Of a DNA stretch of 64,000 nucleotides, positions 33,857 to 57,418 are shown piece after piece (the stretch's first letter is position 1; the number at the start of each line of letters is the position of its first letter). The notes under the pieces were generated by a model, which saw only the letters and a program-made list of their open reading frames with translations, did not search any database and was not told the origin of the DNA. Origin of the DNA: an uncultured Bacilli bacterium (GTDB lineage Bacteria > Bacillota_I > Bacilli_A > RFN20 > CAG-288); NCBI GenBank assembly GCA_944332485.1, contig CALVKB010000002.1:11044-75043 (forward strand), given 5' to 3'. The translations under genes were made by a program, and so were the position numbers.

Positions 33857-34123
33857 ATGAAAAACAAAAAAGACAAAACTTTGAAAGTATTAACAAAAAA
33901 AGGACAGAAGATTTTTCTCATTATTGGGTTATTTTGTTTAAAAATTTTTATCTTCTGTCTTAGTTTTATTTTGATGGTTTTATTTGGAGCCATAGATTTT
34001 TCTTCAACTTTAGGTAATCAACTTGGAATTTATATTCCACTTGGTATATTGATTTTAGATTTCATAGCCTTTATCATTTCAAGTATAGTGATAAAAATAA
34101 AATGCTCTGAAACTATCGACTAA
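33857..34123 (+). CDS. small membrane protein (88 aa), hypothetical
   Basis: Two hydrophobic helices after a Lys-rich N-terminus. Confidence 0.4.
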   Translation: MKNKKDKTLKVLTKKGQKIFLIIGLFCLKIFIFCLSFILMVLFGAIDFSSTLGNQLGIYIPLGILILDFIAFIISSIVIKIKCSETID

Positions 34124-34623
34124 ATCATATTTATTTCCAAATCGGACATCTCGTAAATTTTATTCTGTTTTAATGACTTTTTAACATCGATGAATCTTTG
34201 GTTTGAACTTCCTTTAAAAAGCAAACTAAGATCCATCTTTTCATATATAAATTTTCCATCCACTAAATAATCGATGTAATTTAAAATTTCGTTAAAATTA
34301 CTTTTGACATCTTCAAAATCGTAACCGGTGTACAAAATGATATCCAAATTTGAAAATTTCTCTTTTATCATTTTACAAACAGACAATGCATCTTCGTATT
34401 GATCTAGTGGATCTCCACCAGTTAAAGTTACTCCGTCAATATGTTTGTCTTTTCTAATTAGTTCTTCTATTTTTTCAATGCTGTATTCTTTACCTTTTTC
34501 AAAATCCCAGGAGTTTGGATTATGACATTTGAAACAATGATGTGAACATCCTTGAAAAAAGATCGCTAATCTTATTCCAGGACCATCCACAATACTCTCA
34601 TCTACAATTCCGTATAGTCTCAT
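34120..34623 (-). CDS. nrdG: anaerobic ribonucleoside-triphosphate reductase activating protein (radical SAM)
   Basis: GPGIRLAIFFQGCSHHCFKCHNP (Cx3Cx2C cluster motif); immediately downstream of nrdD. Confidence 0.85.
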   Translation of the reverse strand: MRLYGIVDESIVDGPGIRLAIFFQGCSHHCFKCHNPNSWDFEKGKEYSIEKIEELIRKDKHIDGVTLTGGDPLDQYEDALSVCKMIKEKFSNLDIILYTGYDFEDVKSNFNEILNYIDYLVDGKFIYEKMDLSLLFKGSSNQRFIDVKKSLKQNKIYEMSDLEINMI

Positions 34624-34628
34624 ATTTA

Positions 34629-36971
34629 TTAATCATCAAGATTAATCGTGTGTTTTACCCTTGCTTTCTCCTCAGCTTTTTTAGCGTTGTTAAATCTATC
34701 AAGTGTTCCAACTAAATAACCTGTGATTCTCCTAATTCTTTCAAATTTACTCTGCTCTGTTTCTTTTCTGTGGCATTTTGGACATTCATTGTCGATGATT
34801 CCGTTATAACCACATTCCGGATCTCTATCAACTGGATGGTTGATTGCACCATAACCAACACCAGCATCATGCATATGTCTGACAACTTTCTCATATGCTT
34901 TTATATTTTTAGCTGTATCACCATCCATCTCGATGTATGTGATGTGACCGGCTAATGTGTATTTATGATATTCTGACTCAATATCAATTTTATCGAACAT
35001 TGAAATAGGGTAATAAACAGGAACATGCATTGAATTTGTATAGAATTCCTTGTCAGTAACACCTTCGATAATTCCGTATTTCTTCTTATCAAGTTTGATG
35101 AATCTTCCGGAAAGTCCTTCAGCGGGTGTAGCAATAATTCCAAAGTTGAGATTGTGCTTTTTAGTTTCTTTATCAGCACGATCTTTCATAAATTTAACAA
35201 TCTTCAAACCTAATTCCTGAGCTTCTTTTGATTCACCGTGGTGTTTTCCAATCAAAGCAACCAAAGCTTCAGCTAAACCGATAAAACCATAAGTCAAAGT
35301 ACCATGTTTGATAACTTCTTTAATCTCATCGTCAGCTTTCAATTTATCAGAATCAATCCACACACCATTACCCATCAAAAATGGCATATTTTTAGCTTTT
35401 CTGTGAGCTTGAACATCAAATCTATCCAACAATTGTTTGGTCACCAAAGTCATTGTATCATCGAGCTTTTTGAAGAACAAATCAACATCGTGATGTGATT
35501 CTATGGCTAATCTTGGCAAATTAATCGAAGTAAAAGAGAGATTTCCTCTACCAGAAGTTACTGCTTTATTTGGATCGTAATGGTTTTCAAAAACTCTTGT
35601 ACGGCAACCCATATATGCGACTTCATGTTCATAATCACCATATTTCCACTCTTTTCTTGCGTTGAATGGAGCATCTAAGAATGAGAAGTTAGGGAATAAA
35701 CGTTTGGATGAGCAAACCATCGATTCGATAAGTAAATCGTAGTTTGGATCTTCTTTGTTATAAGAGATTCCTTCTTTCACTTTGAAAATTTGAATTGGGA
35801 AAATAGGTGTTTCACCATCTCCTAAACCAGCTTCTGTAGCTCTTAATAACTGTTTGACAACCAAACGGCCTTCATTTGATGTATCTGTACCATAGTTCAA
35901 AGATGAGAATGGAACTTGAGCACCAGCTCTGGAGTGCATTGTATTCAAATTATGAATCAAAGCTTCCATAGCTTGATATGTTGCATCAACAATATCTTTG
36001 TTTGAATCTTTGATAATAGCCTTTTTACCTTTCTCCCAGGAAATTTCTGGAATTTCTTTTTCGAGTAACTTAAATGTTCTCTCTATAGATTCATCATTCA
36101 AATAACGAGGTTCTTCATCTTTAGATATGAGATCTTTGAAGATCTTTTTAAGTTTCTCTTCATAAGAATTTTCACCATCGGTTTCAAAATCAGCATATTT
36201 TATACAGTTGTTTCTGAATATTTTATTGAATGATTTGATAACACCTGGAGCCATAGCAAAATCGAAGTTTGGAATAGCTTGTCCGCCGTGCATATCATTC
36301 TGATTGGCTTGGATAGCTATACAAGCTAAGGCGGCGTATGTTCTTATATCATTTGGTTCACGGATGAATCCATGACCGGTTGAAAATCCGTTTTTGAACA
36401 ATTTTAAAAGATCGATTTGACAGCATGTCAAAGTCAAGGAATAAAAGTCCAAATCATGAATATGAATATCACCTTCTATATGTGCTTTAGCGATGTCTTT
36501 ATCAATCATATTATTAAGATAGAAATCTTTTGCGGTCTCAGAACCATATTTGAGCATAGTACCCATTGGGGCATCACCATCAACATTCGCATTTTCCCTT
36601 TTATCATCGTTGACTTTACTATCTTGGAATGTGATGTTTTTAATAGAAGTCATCAAACGCGATTTAGCTTCACGAATTTGATTTCTTTGAGCACGATATG
36701 AGATATATTCCCTTGCTGTTTTACTGTAATCTAAATCTATTAAAACTTCCTCAACGATATCCTGAACTTGCTCAACAGTTGGTAAGTTTTCCTTATTATC
36801 ATATTTAGCATTAATTCTTTTTACAACTTCATCGGTTACTTTTCCAATGGAAATGTCCTCCTGTGTAACTTCACAAGCTTTTTCAATGGCGGCCATTATT
36901 TTAGAAGAATCAAATTTGACAATTCTGCCGTCTCTTTTAACAATTTTCTTGATCATTTTAAATACCCTCAC
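34629..36971 (-). CDS. nrdD: anaerobic ribonucleoside-triphosphate reductase (class III)
   Basis: N-terminal ATP-cone (KIVKRDGRIVKFDSSKI), C-terminal Zn ribbon CPKCH and glycyl-radical motif RITGYLVG. Confidence 0.9.
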   Translation of the reverse strand: MRVFKMIKKIVKRDGRIVKFDSSKIMAAIEKACEVTQEDISIGKVTDEVVKRINAKYDNKENLPTVEQVQDIVEEVLIDLDYSKTAREYISYRAQRNQIREAKSRLMTSIKNITFQDSKVNDDKRENANVDGDAPMGTMLKYGSETAKDFYLNNMIDKDIAKAHIEGDIHIHDLDFYSLTLTCCQIDLLKLFKNGFSTGHGFIREPNDIRTYAALACIAIQANQNDMHGGQAIPNFDFAMAPGVIKSFNKIFRNNCIKYADFETDGENSYEEKLKKIFKDLISKDEEPRYLNDESIERTFKLLEKEIPEISWEKGKKAIIKDSNKDIVDATYQAMEALIHNLNTMHSRAGAQVPFSSLNYGTDTSNEGRLVVKQLLRATEAGLGDGETPIFPIQIFKVKEGISYNKEDPNYDLLIESMVCSSKRLFPNFSFLDAPFNARKEWKYGDYEHEVAYMGCRTRVFENHYDPNKAVTSGRGNLSFTSINLPRLAIESHHDVDLFFKKLDDTMTLVTKQLLDRFDVQAHRKAKNMPFLMGNGVWIDSDKLKADDEIKEVIKHGTLTYGFIGLAEALVALIGKHHGESKEAQELGLKIVKFMKDRADKETKKHNLNFGIIATPAEGLSGRFIKLDKKKYGIIEGVTDKEFYTNSMHVPVYYPISMFDKIDIESEYHKYTLAGHITYIEMDGDTAKNIKAYEKVVRHMHDAGVGYGAINHPVDRDPECGYNGIIDNECPKCHRKETEQSKFERIRRITGYLVGTLDRFNNAKKAEEKARVKHTINLDD

Positions 36972-37284
36972 TCTTTAAAATTTTTATTGCTTCTAACTTA
37001 GTTGCAAAAAATTAATGTAAAAAAATTATATTCACTCTACCACTATGTTTCAACAAGAAAACACCTATTAAAAAACAATTAGTAAACGAGTTTAAAGTTG
37101 GTAATTTTTATCTAACTTGTCAAATAAGATTTTTATTTTTTAAAGCTGTAAAAATCTCTGTCAAAATTTTTTTAAAAAATTTTTTAAAAAGGAAATTTGA
37201 AAGCATGAAAATTAAGGTTTAAAAATTAATGTTGTGACAACTTTATAAATTAAACTAAAATTGTTAAAAGTTTTTAATAAAAAT

Positions 37285-37312
37285 AAAAAGCCACTTTTGT
37301 GGCTTTTGTTTT
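37285..37312. terminator. rho-independent terminator (bidirectional hairpin AAGCCAC-TTTT-GTGGCTT flanked by A/T runs)
   Basis: Perfect 7-bp stem with a 4-nt loop and a T-run; sits 25 nt below the SOR-like gene stop. Confidence 0.6.
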
Positions 37313-37335: not shown

Positions 37336-37746
37336 TTAATCTAATTTTTTAGCACAACCAGGAGTGTAGGTTCTTGTGAAAAGACCATCACGATTACAAT
37401 AGGCGTACATCTTGTCGATCTTCTCATCTTTCGACAATGAAAAATCAGCTACAGGTTCTTTTAATCCACCGATTTGAATTACATGCAAACCGAAGTTTGT
37501 TTGAACAGCGATCCAATCGATGTAATGGAAGTTAATTGTTGGATGATTTTCAACAACTATTCTCCATTGATTCATAGTTTTGTGATAAACTTCAATCTTA
37601 TGTTTATCATCGATGTTATCCTCTTGTTCAATCTCATGCATAACATGATTGTTTGATTTTAATTTACTGTCATAGTTAGACAATTTGATAACTACATCTT
37701 TACCATCATCGGATTTGTAAAAATGTACCTTTTCATTTTCTCTCAT
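37336..37746 (-). CDS. divergent superoxide-reductase-like (desulfoferrodoxin Fe-binding domain) paralog
   Basis: Aligns to the SOR at 57050-57418 (HFYKSDDGK / KFYKDKNNG; NHPTINFHYIDWI / HPMTEAHLIDLI; YAYCNRDGLF / YEHCNLHGLW). It lacks EKHVP and has Asp in place of the last His ligand. Confidence 0.6.
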   Translation of the reverse strand: MRENEKVHFYKSDDGKDVVIKLSNYDSKLKSNNHVMHEIEQEDNIDDKHKIEVYHKTMNQWRIVVENHPTINFHYIDWIAVQTNFGLHVIQIGGLKEPVADFSLSKDEKIDKMYAYCNRDGLFTRTYTPGCAKKLD

Positions 37747-37805
37747 AAATTTATCCTCTCTTCACTTTTATTTTAATTTATAAAAATTATACAAATCAAT
37801 TATTT

Positions 37806-38942
37806 TTAGTTTTGATAATATCTAACTGGTGTTATCAATTGCAGATTGCTCTCATCGCTTGAGACAACTCTGAACATTCTAACTTCACCGGAGAACAAGA
37901 TTGTAATATCATCACTTGTATGAGCTTTACAAGCATCTTTGACAAAATCTGCGTTGAAGTAGATTGTGAACTTATCACCTTCGAATTCGCAGTTATCCAA
38001 TCTTTCAACAGAATAACCATAAGATGGACTTCTTGATGAGATTTCGACCTTACTACCATCATAGACTAATTTTGCATTCTTAATGATACTTTTATCATCA
38101 CCGGAAACTATACAAACTCTATCTAAAATATCGACAAGTTCCTTTGAGGAACATTTAAGTTTATATGGGTAAACACTAGGTAAGATTTTTTCTGCTTCTG
38201 GGAATTCACCTGGAATTGTCTTTGCACTAATTGTGACAGAACCAACAGTGAAGCTAACTTTATCAGCACCAACACGGATTCTAACAACTGGAAGATGTTC
38301 CAATTTGTTTATAACTGATAAAACTTTCAATGAGCAGTTGAAAGAGACCATGACATTGCTTTGTAAAGGTAATGTTTTTCTAGCTAATCTGCAGGTGTCA
38401 GAAGCTGTGAAGGAAATCTTATGATCAAAACATTTGATGTTGATTCCTAAAAACATATCTCTGTTACTTTTTTGTGCAACAGCAAAGTAAGTTGCATCAT
38501 ACAATGTCTTGAAGTCTTCTGGAGAAAGTTCAATCTCTTCACCAACATGTGTACCAAGTTCAATATCAGGATATTCATTGCCAGGTTTGGTGTTGATATT
38601 GTAAGTTGTTCTATCATCGGATATTGTCAATAAAGAGGAATCCACTTGCTCAAGAGTTATCACTTCACCTGCAACTTTGGCAATAATCTCACGTGATAAT
38701 TTAGCAGGAAGTTGAATGGAACCTTCTTGAGAATCTAAAATAACTTCATTACCATCGGTATCTTTGTTGAATTGATTAACTTTGATTGTTATTTTTCCAT
38801 CAGAAGCAAGGATGTTGCATCCTTCATCTGTAATTGTTAATAAAAAGTTTAAAAAACAAGCTTCAGTAGATTTACTAGGGATTGCATCCATAGCGATGTT
38901 TAACATTTTTAATAATGATTGTTTTTTAATTACTAATTTCAT
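37806..38942 (-). CDS. dnaN: DNA polymerase III beta subunit (sliding clamp)
   Basis: 378 aa. N-terminus MKLVIKKQSLLKMLNIAMDAIPSKSTEACFLNFLLTITDEGCNILASDGKITIKV with a three-domain beta-clamp layout; divergent from dnaA. Confidence 0.8.
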   Translation of the reverse strand: MKLVIKKQSLLKMLNIAMDAIPSKSTEACFLNFLLTITDEGCNILASDGKITIKVNQFNKDTDGNEVILDSQEGSIQLPAKLSREIIAKVAGEVITLEQVDSSLLTISDDRTTYNINTKPGNEYPDIELGTHVGEEIELSPEDFKTLYDATYFAVAQKSNRDMFLGINIKCFDHKISFTASDTCRLARKTLPLQSNVMVSFNCSLKVLSVINKLEHLPVVRIRVGADKVSFTVGSVTISAKTIPGEFPEAEKILPSVYPYKLKCSSKELVDILDRVCIVSGDDKSIIKNAKLVYDGSKVEISSRSPSYGYSVERLDNCEFEGDKFTIYFNADFVKDACKAHTSDDITILFSGEVRMFRVVSSDESNLQLITPVRYYQN

Positions 38943-39099
38943 TTTATATACCTCATATAACTTAAATTATTATATCAATAATAAGTGCAATTCTTGTGGG
39001 AATGAATTTAAAAGTGAACTGATTTTTCAGAAACTGAAAGTTTAATTTAAATTATTTTTAATCTTTAAATTTTATATTCATTATTATGTTTTAATTTTC

Positions 39100-39700
39100 T
39101 GTTAATAACTCAAAAAAATGAATATATAAAGAAAAAAGGTTGTTTTGGTTGTTAGTAAATTGTTGATAATCGATATAAATTTGTTAGTAAGTCTGTTAGT
39201 AAGTTGAGTTACTAACAACTTGAAAAGGGTGAAAATTAGCTTAAAAAAGAAACTTGAAAAATTTATAAGAAAAAAATGATGAAAAAATTGTAAAAAGCAC
39301 TCCGTGAAATAATCAACTTTTATTTCACGATGAAAATAATTAAAAAACGAAGAAACAACTTAAAAATACTAACACGTTGCAAGTTAGTAACATGATTTAC
39401 TAACAACAATAAATATATAAAAATTCAAAATATTAAAAAAAAGTATCATTTTTGGATTTTTTATCAACAATTTATTCACATGAAATAAATTCGAAGTTAC
39501 AAACAAATTACCAACATGTTAGTAACTTTTAAAAAATTCGATAACACCTTTAAAATTCTTTAAAATAAATGCTTTTTTCAAATTTCAATTGTTAGTAACT
39601 TGTTGATAACTTGTTAGTAAGTGAAAAAACGATTGATAAATGATTTTTAATAGGTGAAAAAAGCACTATTTATATCGAAAAAACACGTTAGTTTTAATGT
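39100..39700. promoter_or_regulatory. oriC: DnaA-box cluster and AT-rich unwinding region between divergent dnaN and dnaA
   Basis: Perfect TGTTAGTAA at 39150, 39182, 39194, 39517, 39590 and 39612 (forward) and at 39209 and 39397 (reverse). Near copies at 39367 and 39382. TTATCAACA-type boxes at 39161 (rc), 39461 and 39601 (rc), and TTATTCACA at 39472. AT-rich stretches at 39225-39360 and 39410-39460. Confidence 0.75.
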
Positions 39701-39729
39701 TATAATTTAGAAGAAATAAGAGGTTATAT

Positions 39730-41121
39730 ATGGAAGAAGAAATCAACTCATTGGATCTTATTTGGGAAAATGTAACAAATCACTTGCAGGAAATTTTCGG
39801 ACGTCCATCATACGAAGCATATATTGAAAATATATGCCATCTTATGAAAATTGAGAAAAACAACGCCTATGTTGTTTGTGATCAAAAAGTTTCACTTAAG
39901 ATTCTCTCTCAGGATAGTCAGCTTGATAAATTCAAAAAAGCATTTGAGGAAGCAACTGGAACAAATTACAACGTTTTATTTTATTCTCAAAAAGATTACG
40001 TCAATTTAGACAAAAAGAAAGAGAAGAAAGAAACAAGCAAACCGGATCTTTTTGATCAGTACATCATCAGCCCAAAAGATACTTTTGATACTTTCGTGGT
40101 TGGTCAATCGAATAAACAAGCTTATTTAGCTTGTAATTTGCTTTGCGAAGATAAAGTTACATTTAACCAATTATTCATATATGCCGATTCTGGATTAGGA
40201 AAAACACACTTACTTTCCGCAATTTACAATAAATATAGGGAAGTTCATCCTGATAAGAAGATTAAATACGTTTGTATTAATGATTTTATAGAATTGTACA
40301 TACGATACGTCAGAGAGGAACAGAATAAAACAGGTGATGCAAAAGTAAGTGATATAAAAGATTATTTTGTTGATTTGGATTGTGTTTTATTCGATGATAT
40401 TCAATTTTTAACTGCTAAAAGAAAAACCCAAGAAGTTTTCTTCGATATATTTAACAAATTGCAGATGAGAAATGTCATAGTTGTTATGACATCAGATTGC
40501 TCACCGGATCATATTCAAGATTTAGATAAAAGATTAGTATCAAGATTTTCCTCTGGTTTATCCTGTTTTATCAAGATTCCAGAAAGATCTACAATGATCG
40601 ATATTCTCAAAAAGAAGATTGAACTTAACGGATTAGATATAAACATGTTTCCAGATGAAGTTTTGGATTACATCGCTTCTAAAAATTCCAACAACGTCAG
40701 ATTGTTGGAAGGTGCTTTGAATAGACTATTATTCTTATTAGCTTTACATAAGGATGTAGATAAAGTTGATATGAAATTTGTCCGTATGGCTTTTGAAGAT
40801 AACCGAAGTTACTCCAAAGAGCTTGATCAAGATCATGTTTTGGATGTTGAGGATATCATCTCCGAAGTTGCAAATCAGTTCAATTTGACAATAGGGCAAC
40901 TTAAATCGAAAGTTAGAACCTCACAGATTTCTTACGCACGACAAATCGCTATGTATTTATGCCGAGATCTTTTAAATGAAAGTTTGAACGATATAGGAAG
41001 AGTTTTTGGAAAAGACCATTCCACCGTTTTGGATGCTTGTAAAAAGATAACAAAAAGGATGGAAGAAGATGTCAATTTGAAAAAGACAATCAAGAAGTTG
41101 AAGGATAAATTGAAAAAATAA
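39730..41121 (+). CDS. dnaA: chromosomal replication initiator protein DnaA
   Basis: AAA+ Walker A YADSGLGKTHLL, Walker B VLFDDIQF, sensor and box VII regions, and a C-terminal DNA-binding domain (IAMYLCRDLLNESLNDIGRVFGKDHSTV). Confidence 0.95.
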   Translation: MEEEINSLDLIWENVTNHLQEIFGRPSYEAYIENICHLMKIEKNNAYVVCDQKVSLKILSQDSQLDKFKKAFEEATGTNYNVLFYSQKDYVNLDKKKEKKETSKPDLFDQYIISPKDTFDTFVVGQSNKQAYLACNLLCEDKVTFNQLFIYADSGLGKTHLLSAIYNKYREVHPDKKIKYVCINDFIELYIRYVREEQNKTGDAKVSDIKDYFVDLDCVLFDDIQFLTAKRKTQEVFFDIFNKLQMRNVIVVMTSDCSPDHIQDLDKRLVSRFSSGLSCFIKIPERSTMIDILKKKIELNGLDINMFPDEVLDYIASKNSNNVRLLEGALNRLLFLLALHKDVDKVDMKFVRMAFEDNRSYSKELDQDHVLDVEDIISEVANQFNLTIGQLKSKVRTSQISYARQIAMYLCRDLLNESLNDIGRVFGKDHSTVLDACKKITKRMEEDVNLKKTIKKLKDKLKK

Positions 41122-41609
41122 TGTTTGAAGTTATAAAAGATATTTATATAGGAAATGAGGATGACTTTTATAACTGTGCGAAATACGATGATAGTTTCAA
41201 TGTAATTCATGCTAAAAGTGAACCATATTTTGTCCAAGGTTTAAGTTATCTTTCTCAAAATCCAACATTATTGAAAAAACTTTACGGACACAGATATTTG
41301 TACTGCAGAGGGGAACTATGTTTAGATTTCCCTTCACCCTTTTATTATGATGATAAAACTCATCTGATGTTTGATGAAGCTTGTGAATATATAAAAAGAA
41401 CTTTAAGCCAAAACAAAAAGATTTTGATACATTGTGCAAATGGGTTTCAAAGAAGCCCAGCGGTACTTTTTTATTACTTTTTAAAAACAGGTTATATTAA
41501 AAATGATGACTTCTCAACAGCTTTGAATAAATTTTATGTTCTCTATCCTAGCTTCACTCCAACAAGAACAATGTTAGAATTTTTTCAAAATGAATTTTTT
41601 AAAAAATGA
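41121..41609 (+). CDS. dual-specificity / protein-tyrosine phosphatase (CX5R)
   Basis: Catalytic loop HCANGFQRS (C-x5-R). Its start overlaps the dnaA stop (TAATG). Confidence 0.7.
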   Translation: MFEVIKDIYIGNEDDFYNCAKYDDSFNVIHAKSEPYFVQGLSYLSQNPTLLKKLYGHRYLYCRGELCLDFPSPFYYDDKTHLMFDEACEYIKRTLSQNKKILIHCANGFQRSPAVLFYYFLKTGYIKNDDFSTALNKFYVLYPSFTPTRTMLEFFQNEFFKK

Positions 41610-52212: not shown

Positions 52213-52486
52213 CTATTTAAACCTCCTTATTTATTATTATAAATCAGAAAATATTTCTTAAAAATAAAATATTAGCAAAATATCGTTTTTCTTTATAAAT
52301 AGAATGGTTTTAACATTTTACAACTTTCATTTTTATAAAAGAATTGTTAAGTTTCAATTTTCAATTTTAATATCAACTTTTTGATTTTTTTAAGTTTTTA
52401 CTTTTATTTAAAATTTCATTTATAAATATATTAAAATAATATAAATCAACATTTTTTTGTGTTGTGCGAATTTAAGGAGACTGACC

Positions 52487-55400
52487 ATGAATGTTAAAAG
52501 CTTGATTAATGAGATGCTTGATTCATCGAATCTTAATAAATTACTTTACGTTCAACTTGGAAGAAACGACACATGTGCATGTTATACAAATTATTCAAAC
52601 CTATTTTATGACTTGCTGCATGGTAAACAGATTAAGATAAAACCTCTTTTTTCTTTCAATAAGGAAGATATATCGTATGAGAACGATTTACTCGATCGTG
52701 GAAATTTGAAGGATAAACAATTCTTTTTCAAGGAAGATTTGAAACAACTTGAGAAGATAGTTGATATTTCAAAAATATATTCTGAAAAAGCACTCTTTTT
52801 GCTTTGCAAGACAAATATCGCAAAGCAGATCATTGAAGATTTGACAAATCTTCCTCAAGTTTATGTCTCTTTTGTAAATTTGAGATATTATTCTGTCAAT
52901 TCTCAAGAAAACTTGATAGGTCAGTTGCTTTTCTTAAAATGTAAAGTCTTGAAACAAGGAGACGATTATGTTTTGAAAGGTGTCTCTTCCGATGTTGTTT
53001 TCAATACGACTTTATTAAATGAGATTCGAGAAGAACATAACATCGACTTAACTTATGATTATCATGATTTTGTTCTAAATAACTATGTTAAATTTGTCAA
53101 TGATAAAGTCAGTCCGTTGTTGATGAGTTGCACTTGTGATATTTTTGTAAATTCAGTCAATGTAGGTTTACAAAATTTGATTAATGCTCGTTCTGAAGTT
53201 TTGAATGATAATTTGGATAATTTATCAAATAATTTGAAAGCTATCAATGAGCACATAGATATCGATGAAAAATATGATTTTGAGAAAGAGGACTTTGGTT
53301 ATGGTGGTCCTCTTACTGTTCCTTATAAAGAGATGCGCGCAAATCTTGATAAATATGGCATTGTTAAATTGAACATTGACGATAAAAGCTTTGGCAAAGA
53401 AATTCTCAAACGTTTTAATCAGGAGATTGTTAGCAAAAAGAATTCAGTTTTATATATAGAACCTAATGAAGCTCAAGCTAAACAGCGCAGAGATGAATTT
53501 TTGCAAGAAGGTTTCAAAGGCCTTTTGAGTGAAGATAGTATCGATTCTTGCGAGATAAATTTGGTTGATTCATTTAAAAAAGCAGTAGAAATAAATCATG
53601 AAACATACTTGACAAAACAAGAGGAACAAACTTTAACTTCCTTCCTTGATTTGAAGAACAAATACATAGAAAGTAAAACAAAGGAAAGAGCCAAACTTGA
53701 TTTCCATTTAGGTGACTCTTATTTGGTTACAACAAATAAAGCTAGTTATTATTATTTGAAAAGTGATAAAATTTTCGATTTAGAAATTGAACAATATACT
53801 GATGATGATTATGCCATGGATCAAGTTTTCATCTCCAATTTGAAAAATTATGGCAAATTTATCAATACTCCATTGAAAGATAATCCGTTTTATGGTGTAA
53901 CAACTGATCTAAGCGAAAATAATTTTGCAGAGATCAAGAAAAACTGTGCAAATTTGAAGATAAAGATTGATGCTTTGAAAGAGTATATCGCAGTTGAGAA
54001 TATTGCCAGCTTCGGTTTTGGAAATGCAAATTCTATAACTGAAGTTAAAAACATCATCGATGCTTTGTATGTTTTGATCAAATATAACGGTTTTGATCTT
54101 AGATTTTTCGATATAGCTTCAAATCCTTTAACAAAATTGAAGATTGATGAGTTAGCTGAATTACAGGAACATTTGTTAGATAAAAGAAATGAACTTCAGG
54201 AATTTTTCAAAGACAAATCATTCTTGCTGGATAATGATGTTGCAACCTTGTACAACCAAATAAAGGATAAAACAAAACAGAAACGTTCAGCTAAGAAACA
54301 AATTAAAAAAGCTTTAGTGAGAAAATTCGGTGTTTTCAAGAAAGTTTACAAAATGCTTCCTGAATATATCGAATGCGATAATGAGTTTAGAAAACAATTG
54401 CCAGATTTCGAAGAGGTATTCGGTTATACCATCTATGATGTAGATGGCGTAAGTAAGATTCAACAATATATAGATTATGCTAATGAATTTATCAGTATGA
54501 AGAATACATTTGCTGATTGTGAAAATGTCAATTTTAATTCCGAATTTTTCACAAAATTCTTCACAGACCCTGAGTATCGTAGCACTGTTCGTATCGATTT
54601 ACTTCCACGATTAGAATCTTTGTATTCAGAAGTTTCTGAACAGTTCAATAGTTACAGCTTGTTATTTGATTCTGATGAACTTATCACTATGAAATTTGAA
54701 AAAGTTCTCAAGTTGATCGATAAGAAACTTAATGCAAGTTATCAAGAGTTTGTAATATACAGACAGTATATGAACGAAATTGAACACACATCTGATGTTT
54801 TCAAACAATTCCATAAAATGTTTGTTGATAAATACTTGCCGATGACAAGTATCGAGAATGATTACTTCGCATCTTTATTCAAAGGTTTATCCAATAAAGT
54901 TTATGAAGAATTGGATTTGTCAAATGAGGAGAATATCTATTTGAAATCCGATTATATCAAGCAACTTTATTTGAATAAGGATCTTTTGAACCGTTATGAT
55001 GTGATGAAGGTCACTGATTATAGAACTTCAATTTTGAATTCAGAATTATTTAAGGAGAGATTGAAGAGTTTGAAATACACATATCACTATAATCAAATTC
55101 CAAATATCGAGAAGATTGTCACTGCTTTGGATAGCTTTTACAACAGTGTTTTACCAATAACAGTTGAAACTATCGATAAAGTGCACTATTTCTCCAAATT
55201 GAATTTTGACTATTTAATCGTTGATAATAGTTCACAATTTAGTGATCAAGAATTGTTACTTTTGTTAACTTTGAATCCAAATAGCAAGATTGTCATATTA
55301 AGTTACAGTGAGACTCCAGAAATTCGTCTTAATCTTTACCCATTGGTGAGAGTCAATTTTGAATCGATACTTGGAATCCCTTATTCATATGACAAATTAT

Positions 55401-56281
55401 TCGCGTCATTTGCTAACCAAGTGGAACTTGTCAGCAACAAACATGGTTTTGAAGTTAATAACAATACCGCAAGTTTGGATCCTTTAAGTCCACCATTGGC
55501 TTTGTATAATCCTGGAATTAACAAAGTATCGCACCTATTGCTTCCTGATTGTTTATATGAAATTGATGATGTTGAAAATGTCGAATACAGTTTGAGAAGA
55601 TTTTTGTTAGATACATACAATTCAACATTGTTTGTTATCAATTCCTTGTTGATTGTTTACGAAAATCAAAAAGCTTTCAATTTAACACTTAGAGCTTATG
55701 ACCAATATTTGCAAAAGATTAAAGTTGAAGTCAAAGATGTTGAGAACCAACCAAGTGACGATTTGAAGAGTCAAGGTAGCAAGAATGAATATGAACAAAG
55801 ATTAGCTTTGTTGCAAACATGTTTCAAACTCTATCCGAAGGATGATGAAATTAATGAATTGCTTTCAAATGAAAAATATGTCGAATTACTCGGAAGAATA
55901 GTCCCATGTCATATCAGCAGCATTGAAAGACTCAACGATAGAAAATTGAATGAAGAGATCACAAAATATCTCAAATCCAATCTTTTGAGAATCAAAGATG
56001 ATATGGTTTACTTCACAGAATATGAGAGAAATGAATTCAAGTTATCATCCAACAGAACTTTATCTGATATTGATTTAAGTGAATTTGTGAATTTCATAAG
56101 AGTTTATATATCCAACTTCACATTTATCAAATGTTCCGATTTAAGAAAGATATTAGCTACAGCAGTTAATTTAGATGAAACCATGGAATCATTTATCGAG
56201 AAGTACAATCAAGCTCTCAATTACCTTGTTAGACATAGATATTGTGAACTTAATGGTGATAATATTGTATTGAAAAGATAA
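52487..56281 (+). CDS. very large orphan cytoplasmic protein (1264 aa), function unknown
   Basis: The start is taken at the ATG preceded by AAGGAG, since the track begins at a TTG. No Walker A/B, nuclease or repeat motif was recognised. One helicase-motif-II-like string (DYLIVDNSSQ) occurs without a P-loop. Confidence 0.6.
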   Translation: MNVKSLINEMLDSSNLNKLLYVQLGRNDTCACYTNYSNLFYDLLHGKQIKIKPLFSFNKEDISYENDLLDRGNLKDKQFFFKEDLKQLEKIVDISKIYSEKALFLLCKTNIAKQIIEDLTNLPQVYVSFVNLRYYSVNSQENLIGQLLFLKCKVLKQGDDYVLKGVSSDVVFNTTLLNEIREEHNIDLTYDYHDFVLNNYVKFVNDKVSPLLMSCTCDIFVNSVNVGLQNLINARSEVLNDNLDNLSNNLKAINEHIDIDEKYDFEKEDFGYGGPLTVPYKEMRANLDKYGIVKLNIDDKSFGKEILKRFNQEIVSKKNSVLYIEPNEAQAKQRRDEFLQEGFKGLLSEDSIDSCEINLVDSFKKAVEINHETYLTKQEEQTLTSFLDLKNKYIESKTKERAKLDFHLGDSYLVTTNKASYYYLKSDKIFDLEIEQYTDDDYAMDQVFISNLKNYGKFINTPLKDNPFYGVTTDLSENNFAEIKKNCANLKIKIDALKEYIAVENIASFGFGNANSITEVKNIIDALYVLIKYNGFDLRFFDIASNPLTKLKIDELAELQEHLLDKRNELQEFFKDKSFLLDNDVATLYNQIKDKTKQKRSAKKQIKKALVRKFGVFKKVYKMLPEYIECDNEFRKQLPDFEEVFGYTIYDVDGVSKIQQYIDYANEFISMKNTFADCENVNFNSEFFTKFFTDPEYRSTVRIDLLPRLESLYSEVSEQFNSYSLLFDSDELITMKFEKVLKLIDKKLNASYQEFVIYRQYMNEIEHTSDVFKQFHKMFVDKYLPMTSIENDYFASLFKGLSNKVYEELDLSNEENIYLKSDYIKQLYLNKDLLNRYDVMKVTDYRTSILNSELFKERLKSLKYTYHYNQIPNIEKIVTALDSFYNSVLPITVETIDKVHYFSKLNFDYLIVDNSSQFSDQELLLLLTLNPNSKIVILSYSETPEIRLNLYPLVRVNFESILGIPYSYDKLFASFANQVELVSNKHGFEVNNNTASLDPLSPPLALYNPGINKVSHLLLPDCLYEIDDVENVEYSLRRFLLDTYNSTLFVINSLLIVYENQKAFNLTLRAYDQYLQKIKVEVKDVENQPSDDLKSQGSKNEYEQRLALLQTCFKLYPKDDEINELLSNEKYVELLGRIVPCHISSIERLNDRKLNEEITKYLKSNLLRIKDDMVYFTEYERNEFKLSSNRTLSDIDLSEFVNFIRVYISNFTFIKCSDLRKILATAVNLDETMESFIEKYNQALNYLVRHRYCELNGDNIVLKR

Positions 56282-56309: not shown

Positions 56310-56678
56310 CTATTTTTTATTGACGAAACTATCAATTTTATAATCTATATTTTTCGCTTGTTGTTCACTGAAGTAATAGATAGGATTCAGTTTGTATTTC
56401 CCTAACAAGCAGAATATGATATCAAGGATGTTCCAAACAACACCGATTATGATTATTGAGCAGATAAGTTTACAAATAAACCAGAAGACACTTTCTTTGC
56501 TGGCTCTGCCAAAATACAATTTATCTAATCCGAGATAACCAACAAAGATACATAGTAACAAAAGGATAAATGTGTTAGGAATTTTACTTAATTTGTCATT
56601 ATCTTGTGAGCCATCAACGAATGTTTGATCGCTCAAAGCTGGTTCTTCAGATATTTCTTCTTCATTATTTTCAATCAT
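56310..56678 (-). CDS. TM2-domain small membrane protein (122 aa)
   Basis: CIFVGYLGLDKLYFGRASK matches the TM2 GxxGxxRFYLG-type motif between two helices; acidic N-terminal tail. Confidence 0.6.
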   Translation of the reverse strand: MIENNEEEISEEPALSDQTFVDGSQDNDKLSKIPNTFILLLLCIFVGYLGLDKLYFGRASKESVFWFICKLICSIIIIGVVWNILDIIFCLLGKYKLNPIYYFSEQQAKNIDYKIDSFVNKK

Positions 56679-56680
56679 AT

Positions 56681-56926
56681 TTATTCGAAATAATCTCTAA
56701 AATCAAATTTATATTTACATCTTAAGATCATTATTAAATCGATAATGTTGTAAAAGATACCGACAATAATAAGAAAAGACAAAAATTTAATAAGAGCAAA
56801 TTTCCAGGTTTTCTTCCATGTTTTTGCATAATAGAATTTGTCCATGCCAAACCAACCGAAGAATAAACAAATGAAAAATAAGCCAAGATCTATTTTAGGT
56901 TTTTCCAATGTTTGAATTTCTGCCAT
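56681..56926 (-). CDS. TM2-domain small membrane protein (81 aa), tandem paralog
   Basis: CLFFGWFGMDKFYYAKTWKK TM2 motif; C-terminal NIIDLIMILRCKYKFD parallels NILDIIFCLLGKYKLN in its neighbour. Confidence 0.6.
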   Translation of the reverse strand: MAEIQTLEKPKIDLGLFFICLFFGWFGMDKFYYAKTWKKTWKFALIKFLSFLIIVGIFYNIIDLIMILRCKYKFDFRDYFE

Positions 56927-57049: not shown

Positions 57050-57418
57050 TTAATTTATTTTTTTAACCCAAAGTCCATGCAAATTGCAGTGCTCGTAGAC
57101 ATTTTGAACTGTTTCATTTGCACCGACTGTGAATTTTGCTTTAGGTTCTTCGTTAGGTGAAAGTTTTCTAACATAGACAGATTTATCAGTTTCAACGACG
57201 ATCAAATCAATCAAGTGAGCTTCGGTCATCGGATGCAAAACCTCACCTACAACAACGCTTACTTCACAACCTTCGATGTGAACTACAGGAACATGTTTTT
57301 CAACTGCAGCATCAGTTGTGTTTGCTTTTACTTCTGTTAAGGAAGTGACATCAACTTCATTTAATGAAGCTAAAGCGTGGATGCCATTATTTTTATCTTT
57401 ATAAAATTTTAAACTCAT
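57050..57418 (-). CDS. superoxide reductase (1Fe-SOR / neelaredoxin type) with a ~38-aa N-terminal extension
   Basis: Signature EKHVPV, HPMTEAH and C-terminal YEHCNLHGLW (four His plus one Cys iron ligands). Confidence 0.85.
   Translation of the reverse strand: MSLKFYKDKNNGIHALASLNEVDVTSLTEVKANTTDAAVEKHVPVVHIEGCEVSVVVGEVLHPMTEAHLIDLIVVETDKSVYVRKLSPNEEPKAKFTVGANETVQNVYEHCNLHGLWVKKIN

Follow-up and report, generated by a model that had tools for sequence, protein, structure and literature searches.

The Fe(His)4(Cys) centre of superoxide reductases (SORs) is a textbook case of rigid conservation, and the natural variation in SORs reported so far affects, to our knowledge, chiefly the Glu and Lys residues of the second sphere. 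In this site, known as centre II, iron is held by four histidines and one cysteine (Fe(His)4(Cys); PMC3116461), and the published centre II motif reads (E)(K)H-x19-27-H-x5-H-x40-63-C-x2-H (PMC11980386). According to a reference cited in PMC3116461, the natural SOR of Nanoarchaeum equitans, which lacks the Glu, is active, and to that extent the Glu-Lys pair is not strictly required and the motif can vary somewhat. SORGOdb has a catch-all label, 'Atypical SOR', for homologs whose metal-binding residues are mutated or that occur in unusual fusions, and for these the authors suspected altered or lost function (PMC3116461). These entries carry mutations of the N-terminal CxxC-x15-CC motif or fusions, not the loss of centre II ligands described below, and the SORGOdb paper describes no coherent family in which centre II has decayed and no linkage to dnaN (PMC3116461).

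The window analyzed here, a 64,000-nucleotide stretch of DNA from an uncultured Bacilli bacterium (G+C content of approximately 30%), encodes two proteins related to SORs. One is a canonical SOR (57050..57418, reverse strand; PF01880, 60.1 bits; PDB 1Y07, E 9e-21), which has a Cys-less N-terminal domain and conforms to the strict centre II motif with the pattern E-K-H42-x19-H-x5-H-x42-C-x2-H. The other, referred to here as X, is a protein of 136 amino acids encoded by an ATG-to-TAA open reading frame on the reverse strand (37336..37746, stop codon included). A sequence-only reading of this DNA had described X as a diverged paralog of the canonical SOR, and the homology on which that description rested proved sound: BLASTP aligned the two proteins with 33% identity over 58 amino acids (E 5e-12), and a global alignment gave 31% identity with FYK, HP..H, and Y..CN..GL in common. 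X also matched the Desulfoferrodoxin profile PF01880 over residues 62-123 with 23.4 bits (E 9e-5), a slim margin over the gathering cut-off of 22.2, and the same profile is matched by the family member P0009 in a precomputed hit. Against TIGR00320 (dfx_rbo), X aligned over nearly the whole length of the model (residues 5-123) with a score of 28.0 bits, below the equivalog cut-off of 146.9, beneath which the canonical SOR of the window likewise falls at 86.8 bits. When a profile built from X and six relatives was compared with the PDB, it aligned with the Treponema pallidum SOR (1Y07; E 2e-7) over residues 41-123 and with the Desulfoarculus baarsii desulfoferrodoxin over residues 5-119.

The AlphaFold2 model of X has a mean pLDDT of 92.4 and a pTM of 0.86, although the input alignment contained canonical SORs and the prediction is thus biased towards the SOR fold. 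The nine best PDB matches of this model in Foldseek were all SORs (1Y07, 2JI1/2JI2, 1DFX, and 1VZG; TM 0.73-0.83, TMq 0.73-0.76), with 1Y07 at the top (TM 0.76/0.83) at approximately 19% identity in the structural alignment. The model, with the same SOR-containing input, predicts a small N-terminal domain followed by the SOR beta-sandwich. The former (residues 1-40; 37627..37746, reverse strand) is a desulforedoxin-like domain containing no Cys that aligns with residues 3-40 of desulfoferrodoxin, the TIGR00320 and D. baarsii alignments both starting at residue 5 of X, while the latter, or centre II domain (residues 46-126; 37369..37611, reverse strand), is delimited by the Pfam match, the 1Y07 alignment, and model strands with pLDDT values of 91-97. 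X is therefore homologous to SORs, far beyond what chance would produce, and belongs to the PF01880 superfamily.

Mapping the centre II residues onto X by alignment gave the pattern D47-K48-H49-x18-H68-x5-H74-x42-C117-x2-D120. Four of the five iron ligands and the catalytic Lys are kept, while the Glu and the last His are both replaced by Asp. The D47-K48-H49 codons (37600..37608, reverse strand) occupy the place of E-K-H, so that the Lys/Glu pair of the EKHVP segment, which the sequence-only reading had reported as missing, retains its Lys together with the ligand His, has Asp for Glu, and has lost only the Pro. The H-x5-H ligand pair is kept from H68-P69 to H74 (37525..37545, reverse strand). 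In C117-N118-R119-D120 (37387..37398, reverse strand) the axial Cys is kept and the fourth equatorial His of C-N-L-H has become Asp, as had been recognized. The two extra C-terminal cysteines of the earlier description were reduced to one, as X contains only two Cys in total, the ligand C117 and C131 (37354..37356, reverse strand), and the latter is not conserved, being Met, Ser, or Asp in relatives. The altered metal site thus stood, with its details amended. As no Cys precedes residue 117, the N-terminal CxxC-x15-CC that forms the FeCys4 centre I is missing. In the model, the blocks around the active site show pLDDT values of 91-96.

With Asp in place of the fourth His and a first spacer of 18 residues, X departs from the strict centre II motif and, judged by its alignments, lies outside the defining active-site criterion for SORs; for this reason it should not be filed as a superoxide reductase. 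In SOR crystal structures the His of C-x2-H binds iron through N-delta-1, and a carboxylate oxygen of Asp is nearly isosteric with this atom. Since the place of N-delta-1 could be reached by the carboxylate oxygen of D120, we judge it more probable than not that X still binds metal, and the copy in the window may hold a metal ion at a predicted site made of three His, Cys, and Asp.

Comparison with the known SOR classes revealed that X is matched best, by both profile and structure, by the T. pallidum class III SOR (1Y07), which is of similar length. Both proteins have a desulforedoxin-like N-terminal domain without an FeCys4 centre followed by the SOR beta-sandwich, and they have the K-H, H-x5-H, and Cys positions in common, the 1Y07 residues being E48-K49-H50, H70, H76, C119, and H122 as counted from the alignment. 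X differs from 1Y07 in having Asp at the Glu and last-His positions and a first spacer of 18 residues instead of at least 19, and the family of X, unlike 1Y07, goes on to shed most of its ligands. The Cys-less N-terminal domain of X fits class III, but its centre II, one His short, is not the intact centre of that class, so by sequence X would be class III in architecture and not a member by active site. The 2Fe-SORs, or Dx-SORs, of D. baarsii (2JI1) and Desulfovibrio desulfuricans (1DFX) matched the model with TM values of 0.74-0.76 and start with FYK as X does, and the intact proteins nearest to X in our tree (P0016, P0022, and P0027) are of the 2Fe-SOR type with CxxC-x15-CC. X, in contrast, lacks all four cysteines of centre I as well as the fourth His of centre II. 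By descent it is closest to 2Fe-SOR-like proteins. The neelaredoxins of N. equitans and Ignicoccus hospitalis (PDB 4BK8) deviate from E-K-H in lacking its Glu or Lys, and X deviates from it with D-K-H; these SORs retain the full set of four His plus Cys and, as far as the cited record goes, are active, whereas X is without a primary iron ligand.

The relatives of X comprise P0001-P0010, P0157-P0163, and the proteins of L012 and L013, none of which bears a name in any public source examined. An hmmsearch with the family profile against 1.84 billion representative proteins returned 414 matches at E <= 0.001, with a clear gap between the family (221-126 bits) and ordinary SORs (at most 77 bits), and a neighbour-joining tree placed the family as monophyletic with 100% bootstrap support. 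Its tree neighbours are 2Fe-SOR-like proteins from other metagenomes (P0016, P0022, P0023, and P0027), in which E-K is missing but the four His and the Cys are all present. With only 26-31% identity to the canonical SOR of the window, the family did not arise from it by recent duplication; X is a paralog, as had been claimed, only in a loose sense, and groups instead with these 2Fe-SOR-like proteins. Using a comparison set of 160 sequences (the top 156 SOR-like proteins and four local sequences), the full H-H-H-C-H pattern was found in 110, while the fourth His was present in none of the family members, which have D, D, E, N, or K in its place.

Written as E K H / H / H / C..H, the ligand positions read DKH / H / H / C..D in X and P0002, PKH / H / H / C..N in P0009, and NKH / H / R / C..E in P0004. 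In clade B, which comprises at least ten clusters, they read QAF / H / N / C..K, so that only H68 and C117 are kept, with Cys further changed to Met in L012 and P0159, and in P0010 no ligand is left. The copy in the window is the least degenerate member of the family. In the tree the ligand-rich P0009 and the branch of X and P0002 come off first and the ligand-poor members are nested, with only 32-66% support at internal nodes, and the simplest history suggested by these sequences is loss of the fourth His at the base of the family, followed by independent loss of other ligands in at least two to three lineages. Across 11 members 27 columns are invariant, ten of which lie within residues 1-36, and conservation within the family is highest in the N-terminal domain (residues 1-40); signature residues include KDVV, S-x-Y, W61, N72, YIDWI, H88, Q91, and G93. 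A model of a clade B member (pLDDT 85) also adopts the SOR fold, with TM values of 0.75-0.82 to 1Y07, a result biased by the canonical SORs in the AlphaFold2 alignments.

Comparisons of X with its relatives gave pN values of 0.10-0.38 versus pS values of 0.4-1.0. Where dS was computable, dN/dS was approximately 0.18-0.49, and approximately 0.18-0.23 for pairs involving the window, versus 0.19-0.22 for dnaN from the same genomes; as synonymous sites are saturated in most pairs, these ratios are rough. The family is under purifying selection, and X, far from being absent or pseudogenised in relatives, is intact. Because three to five of the five ligands have been lost in many members while the fold and purifying selection were kept, the function that the members share is unlikely to be canonical SOR catalysis. 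The family is probably kept for something independent of the SOR iron site, with ordinary superoxide detoxification gone, and the conserved Cys-less N-terminal domain would be the best candidate for its functional surface.

On balance we think it somewhat probable that X is an SOR-derived pseudoenzyme or repurposed scaffold of class III-type ancestry that is kept for a non-canonical role. X would be a small protein of two domains, located in the cytoplasm, whose ancestor was a desulfoferrodoxin or T. pallidum-type SOR, the founder of the family having lost the fourth equatorial iron-ligating His, after which the family would have been maintained for something other than canonical superoxide reduction. 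The copy in the window, which keeps Lys48, His49, His68, His74, and Cys117 and has Asp120 at the place of the fourth His, would hold a metal, iron being the likeliest, through a 3His/1Asp/1Cys site. The additional negative charge of Asp120 would be expected to lower the redox potential and weaken the attraction of superoxide, so that the metal would be structural or regulatory and not part of an efficient SOR cycle, and X itself would have lost SOR activity. A point against this explanation is that a 3His/Asp/Cys site might still reduce superoxide.

X lies directly downstream of dnaN (37806..38942, reverse strand), which encodes a beta clamp with all three clamp domains (PF00712, PF02767, and PF02768). 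The 59-nt spacer between the genes (37747..37805, reverse strand) contains the Shine-Dalgarno-like sequence GAGAGGA (37754..37760, reverse strand) 7 nt 5' of the X start codon, a weak promoter-like TTGATT-18-TAAAAT (9/12), and a TATAAT hexamer, and a scan of the spacer identified no terminator-like site. Such a site follows X: an intrinsic-terminator-like hairpin, AAAAGCCAC-AAAA-GTGGCTTTT, and a T-run (37276..37307, reverse strand), of which the GC-containing 9-bp hairpin (37307-37286) lies approximately 30 nt beyond the X stop codon. In the region of X, five terminator-like sites were observed versus 0.6 expected from shuffles, and an analogous site is also present 3' of X in L015. Further downstream, nrdD-nrdG (34120-36971) are set apart by a promoter-like TTGAAA-17-TATAAT (11/12; 37025..37053, reverse strand), and an identical 11/12 match precedes nrdD in L001 and L014. 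The most economical transcription map, plausible from these signals, is dnaN-X, terminator, nrdDG, in which X would follow dnaN on a shared dnaN-X transcript, likely ending at the hairpin at 37307-37286. Of the earlier statement that X is transcribed with dnaN, the adjacency and the absence of a terminator between the two genes were borne out, and co-transcription, to which the 59-nt gap, the ribosome binding site, and a terminator only after X point, is plausible, with an independent X promoter still conceivable given the TATAAT hexamer in the spacer. Although the gene after X is nrdD in the window, L001, L002, and L014, and probably also in L003, L007, and L008, nrdDG were rejected as operon partners of X due to their own conserved promoter-like site, the intervening terminator in the window, and the presence of prfA instead in L015. 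The only match in an Rfam scan of the whole window was a tRNA (331-403), with no riboswitch or other RNA in the vicinity of X. With a ribosome binding site, a terminator, intact relatives, and pN far below pS, X is a real gene.

The arrangement is not peculiar to this genome. In five lineages dnaN lies immediately upstream of X with a gap of 35-98 nt, namely the window, L001-L003 (P0002, 72% identical to X), L007-L009 (P0004, 53%), L014 (P0009, 52%), and L015 (P0010, 41%, with no ligands left). As prfA replaces nrdD downstream of X in L015, the constant partner is dnaN. In clade B, the largest clade of the family, the dnaN linkage is missing, and the gene is found after tadA (L004 and L005), after serS (L012), before rplK-rplA (L021), divergent from csoR-copA (L013, L018, and L019), or with ldh in between (L010 and L011); the csoR-copA cases represent one event, given their common downstream lipase-like gene and X proteins that are 79-86% identical. 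At the loci of the two nearest intact SORs that could be read, P0016 and P0022, both on short contigs, no dnaN was found beside the gene, and a protein search with P0016 as the query recovered P0016 alone. Conservation of the linkage thus extends to five lineages and fails in clade B, which suggests that it was ancestral to the family, survived one local rearrangement, and is dispensable. Because it was lost in the most populous clade, inherited gene order is a possible alternative to functional coupling, and inherited order in related genomes explains dnaN-X about as well as a functional tie.

Several other readings of X can be weighed against these data. X could be a still working SOR, or a related oxidoreductase that scavenges superoxide or peroxide at a shifted potential, that uses an Fe(His)3(Asp)(Cys) centre and serves as a constitutive second isozyme beside the canonical SOR. 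Lys48, the three His, and the axial Cys are all kept with correct H-x5-H and x42 spacings, the active-site blocks are confidently modelled, and SORs without the Glu work according to the reference cited in PMC3116461. Despite only 52-72% overall identity among X, P0002, and P0009, where 37.5% of columns are invariant, K48, H49, H68, P69, H74, and C117 are all among the invariant positions; the naive chance of this is approximately 0.003, a value that rests on three lineages and on positions that were already slow-evolving in the ancestor. The residue at the fourth-His position is also always an O-donor in these lineages, and remains one in P0004 (D, D, N, and E in the window, P0002, P0009, and P0004, respectively). 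We nevertheless regard a working SOR as unlikely: no family member has the fourth His, the TIGR00320 score of 28 is far from the cut-off of 146.9, the genome already has a canonical SOR, and a negatively charged ligand in the equatorial plane would be expected to favour Fe(III) and to repel superoxide. Furthermore, three to five ligands are gone from sister lineages in which purifying selection is just as strong, and so the function that preserves the family would not be this chemistry unless the function changed twice. The stepwise and independent loss of catalytic ligands across the family, together with truncated or frameshifted versions in public assemblies (P0003, P0011, P0012, P0162, and P0163), would also be expected of a decaying, functionless relic, an SOR gene of the past that became caught in the dnaN operon and is drifting to loss. 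This reading is already disfavoured by the selection data, with pN far below pS at the level of dnaN, and we consider it highly improbable, as full-length open reading frames are found in all lineages down to 41% identity, 27 positions are invariant family-wide, the N-terminal domain among them being strongly conserved, 110 member sequences fall into cluster P0158, and the truncated forms lie mostly on contigs of approximately 1.4-7 kb and may be assembly errors.

The sequence-only reading had suggested that X could be a sensor or bind iron or copper without catalysis. The retention of only His68 and Cys117 as ligands in clade B, the change of Cys to Met, another Cu(I) ligand, in L012/P0159, and the location of one clade B block near or divergent from csoR-copA (L010, L011, L013, L018, and L019) would suit a binder or chaperone of copper or another thiophilic metal that uses His68 and Cys117, plus Met. 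This is very doubtful, since csoR-copA marks a single synteny block of close genomes and is absent from the window and the other contexts, P0010 has neither His68 nor Cys117, and no CxxC or MxxxM motif is present. X could also be a replication-associated factor, namely a metal, redox, or oxygen-sensing unit of SOR origin that has the beta clamp or initiation at the adjacent origin as its target and couples replication to oxidative stress in an anaerobe. Consistent with this, dnaN is adjacent in five lineages (the window, P0002, P0004, P0009, and P0010) whose X proteins differ by up to approximately 59%, the dnaN-X pair is intact in L015 even though prfA has taken the place of nrdD downstream, the intact SORs P0016 and P0022 are not beside dnaN, and X is approximately 1.2 kb from the skew-defined origin. 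We consider such a role improbable: the clade B gene has moved to unrelated places, adjacency in related genomes may be inherited gene order, and no QL[SD]LF-type clamp-binding peptide was found in the N- or C-terminal tails of any family member. The 'DGLF' of X was rejected as a clamp-binding motif, as it corresponds to the buried 'HGLW' strand of SORs, and our literature search found nothing relevant linking desulfoferrodoxin with dnaN. As P0010 is without any ligand, metal or redox sensing cannot be the common role; the more elaborate proposal that the family consists of SOR-derived non-enzymes acting with the replication machinery, for instance through binding to the beta clamp or the origin complex, in which the residual 3His/Asp/Cys iron site of the basal, dnaN-linked members would sense oxygen or superoxide and throttle replication on exposure of an anaerobe to oxygen, has in our view just as slight a prospect.

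By the simplest history above, the family of X lost a primary ligand at its root and then shed the rest in several lineages under purifying selection. It offers a natural gradation, with a near-enzyme at one end and a clear non-enzyme at the other, that could show what uses the SOR fold has without iron. The copy in the window represents a natural His-to-Asp ligand swap for spectroscopy, and an Fe(His)3(Asp)(Cys) centre occurring in nature, if true, would be new to bioinorganic chemistry. Automated annotation of such proteins as 'desulfoferrodoxin' would lead to oxygen-defence capacity being overcounted in uncultured gut Bacilli. The family is tiny, monophyletic, and from uncultured low-GC Bacilli: a collection of 5.8 billion proteins contained about 15-17 family clusters, several of them truncated, and a scan of 185,579 species genomes identified two carriers, 'Bacillales bacterium UBA6879', which NCBI places in the class Bacilli, and 'Clostridium sp. 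CAG:568'. An identical copy of X itself, P0165, is present in public assemblies.

The SOR-like proteins closest to the family of the 136-aa SOR-derived protein encoded directly downstream of dnaN are P0016, P0022, P0023, and P0027 (loci L016 and L017), which retain all four His ligands and the Cys of centre II. These proteins are without the Glu-Lys pair before the first ligand His, having D-I-H, A-N-H, or D-E-H in its place, and the CxxC-x15-CC motif of centre I is found in each of them except P0023. The group may represent natural E/K-less 2Fe-SORs, and may have served as a stepping stone to the degenerate family.

In clade B, the largest, ligand-poor clade of the family, the csoR-copA copper-efflux operon lies divergent from the ligand-poor homolog in a single synteny block, which was found in L013 (5242-8387), L018 (3257-6402), L019 (2287-5402), and L010/L011, with a distance from the homolog to csoR of ~175 bp in L018 and L019. 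Two further clade B members, that of L012 and P0159, carry Met in place of the last remaining Cys; their genomic context differs from the csoR-copA block, the L012 gene being located after serS. Taken together, the csoR-copA neighbourhood and the Cys-to-Met replacement provide a weak hint that clade B homologs might have a connection to copper. In public assemblies, some family members are also represented by truncated or frameshifted forms (P0003, P0011, P0012, P0162, and P0163); these lie mostly on contigs of ~1.4-7 kb and could reflect assembly errors or occasional pseudogenisation.

Directly 3' of the canonical SOR of the same genome (57050-57418) and on the same minus strand are two small tandem membrane-protein ORFs of 122 and 81 aa (56310-56926), the second of which has a TM2-domain match below the Pfam threshold (21.2 bits versus a cut-off of 27.9). 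A large protein without an assigned function is encoded by a 1274-aa ORF that begins with TTG (52457-56281, plus strand) and is located between the origin region and the canonical SOR; it had no Pfam match at E-values up to 0.001.

The usual arrangement of dnaA and dnaN is a co-directional pair. In the window, the two genes instead point away from each other across a 787-bp spacer (38943-39729), with dnaA on the plus strand (39730-41121) and dnaN on the minus strand (37806-38942); relatives L001, L002, and L014 share this divergent arrangement. The spacer is the site of the cumulative GC-skew minimum. Across the 64-kb window, TTACTAACA has eight exact matches versus 1.04 expected, a count reached in 0 of 100 shuffles, and all eight fall at 39150-39620. 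They probably represent DnaA boxes of oriC that have diverged in sequence. Near-canonical boxes occur as well (TTATCAACA, three copies; TTATTCACA, one copy). Adjoining dnaA, and overlapping its stop codon by 1 base, is a gene for a 162-aa dual-specificity-phosphatase-like protein (41121-41609, plus strand; PF00782, 39.7 bits), unusual company in a dnaA operon, whose position is kept in L014 (4284-4775).

Upstream of nrdD, a promoter-like TTGAAA-17-TATAAT element with an 11/12 match (37025-37053, minus strand) is identical in three genomes, the other two being L001 (8800-8828) and L014 (8780-8808). In all three it sits inside a leader-like spacer of 365-470 bp, which gave no Rfam family matches and may hold a conserved regulatory region, for example NrdR boxes.
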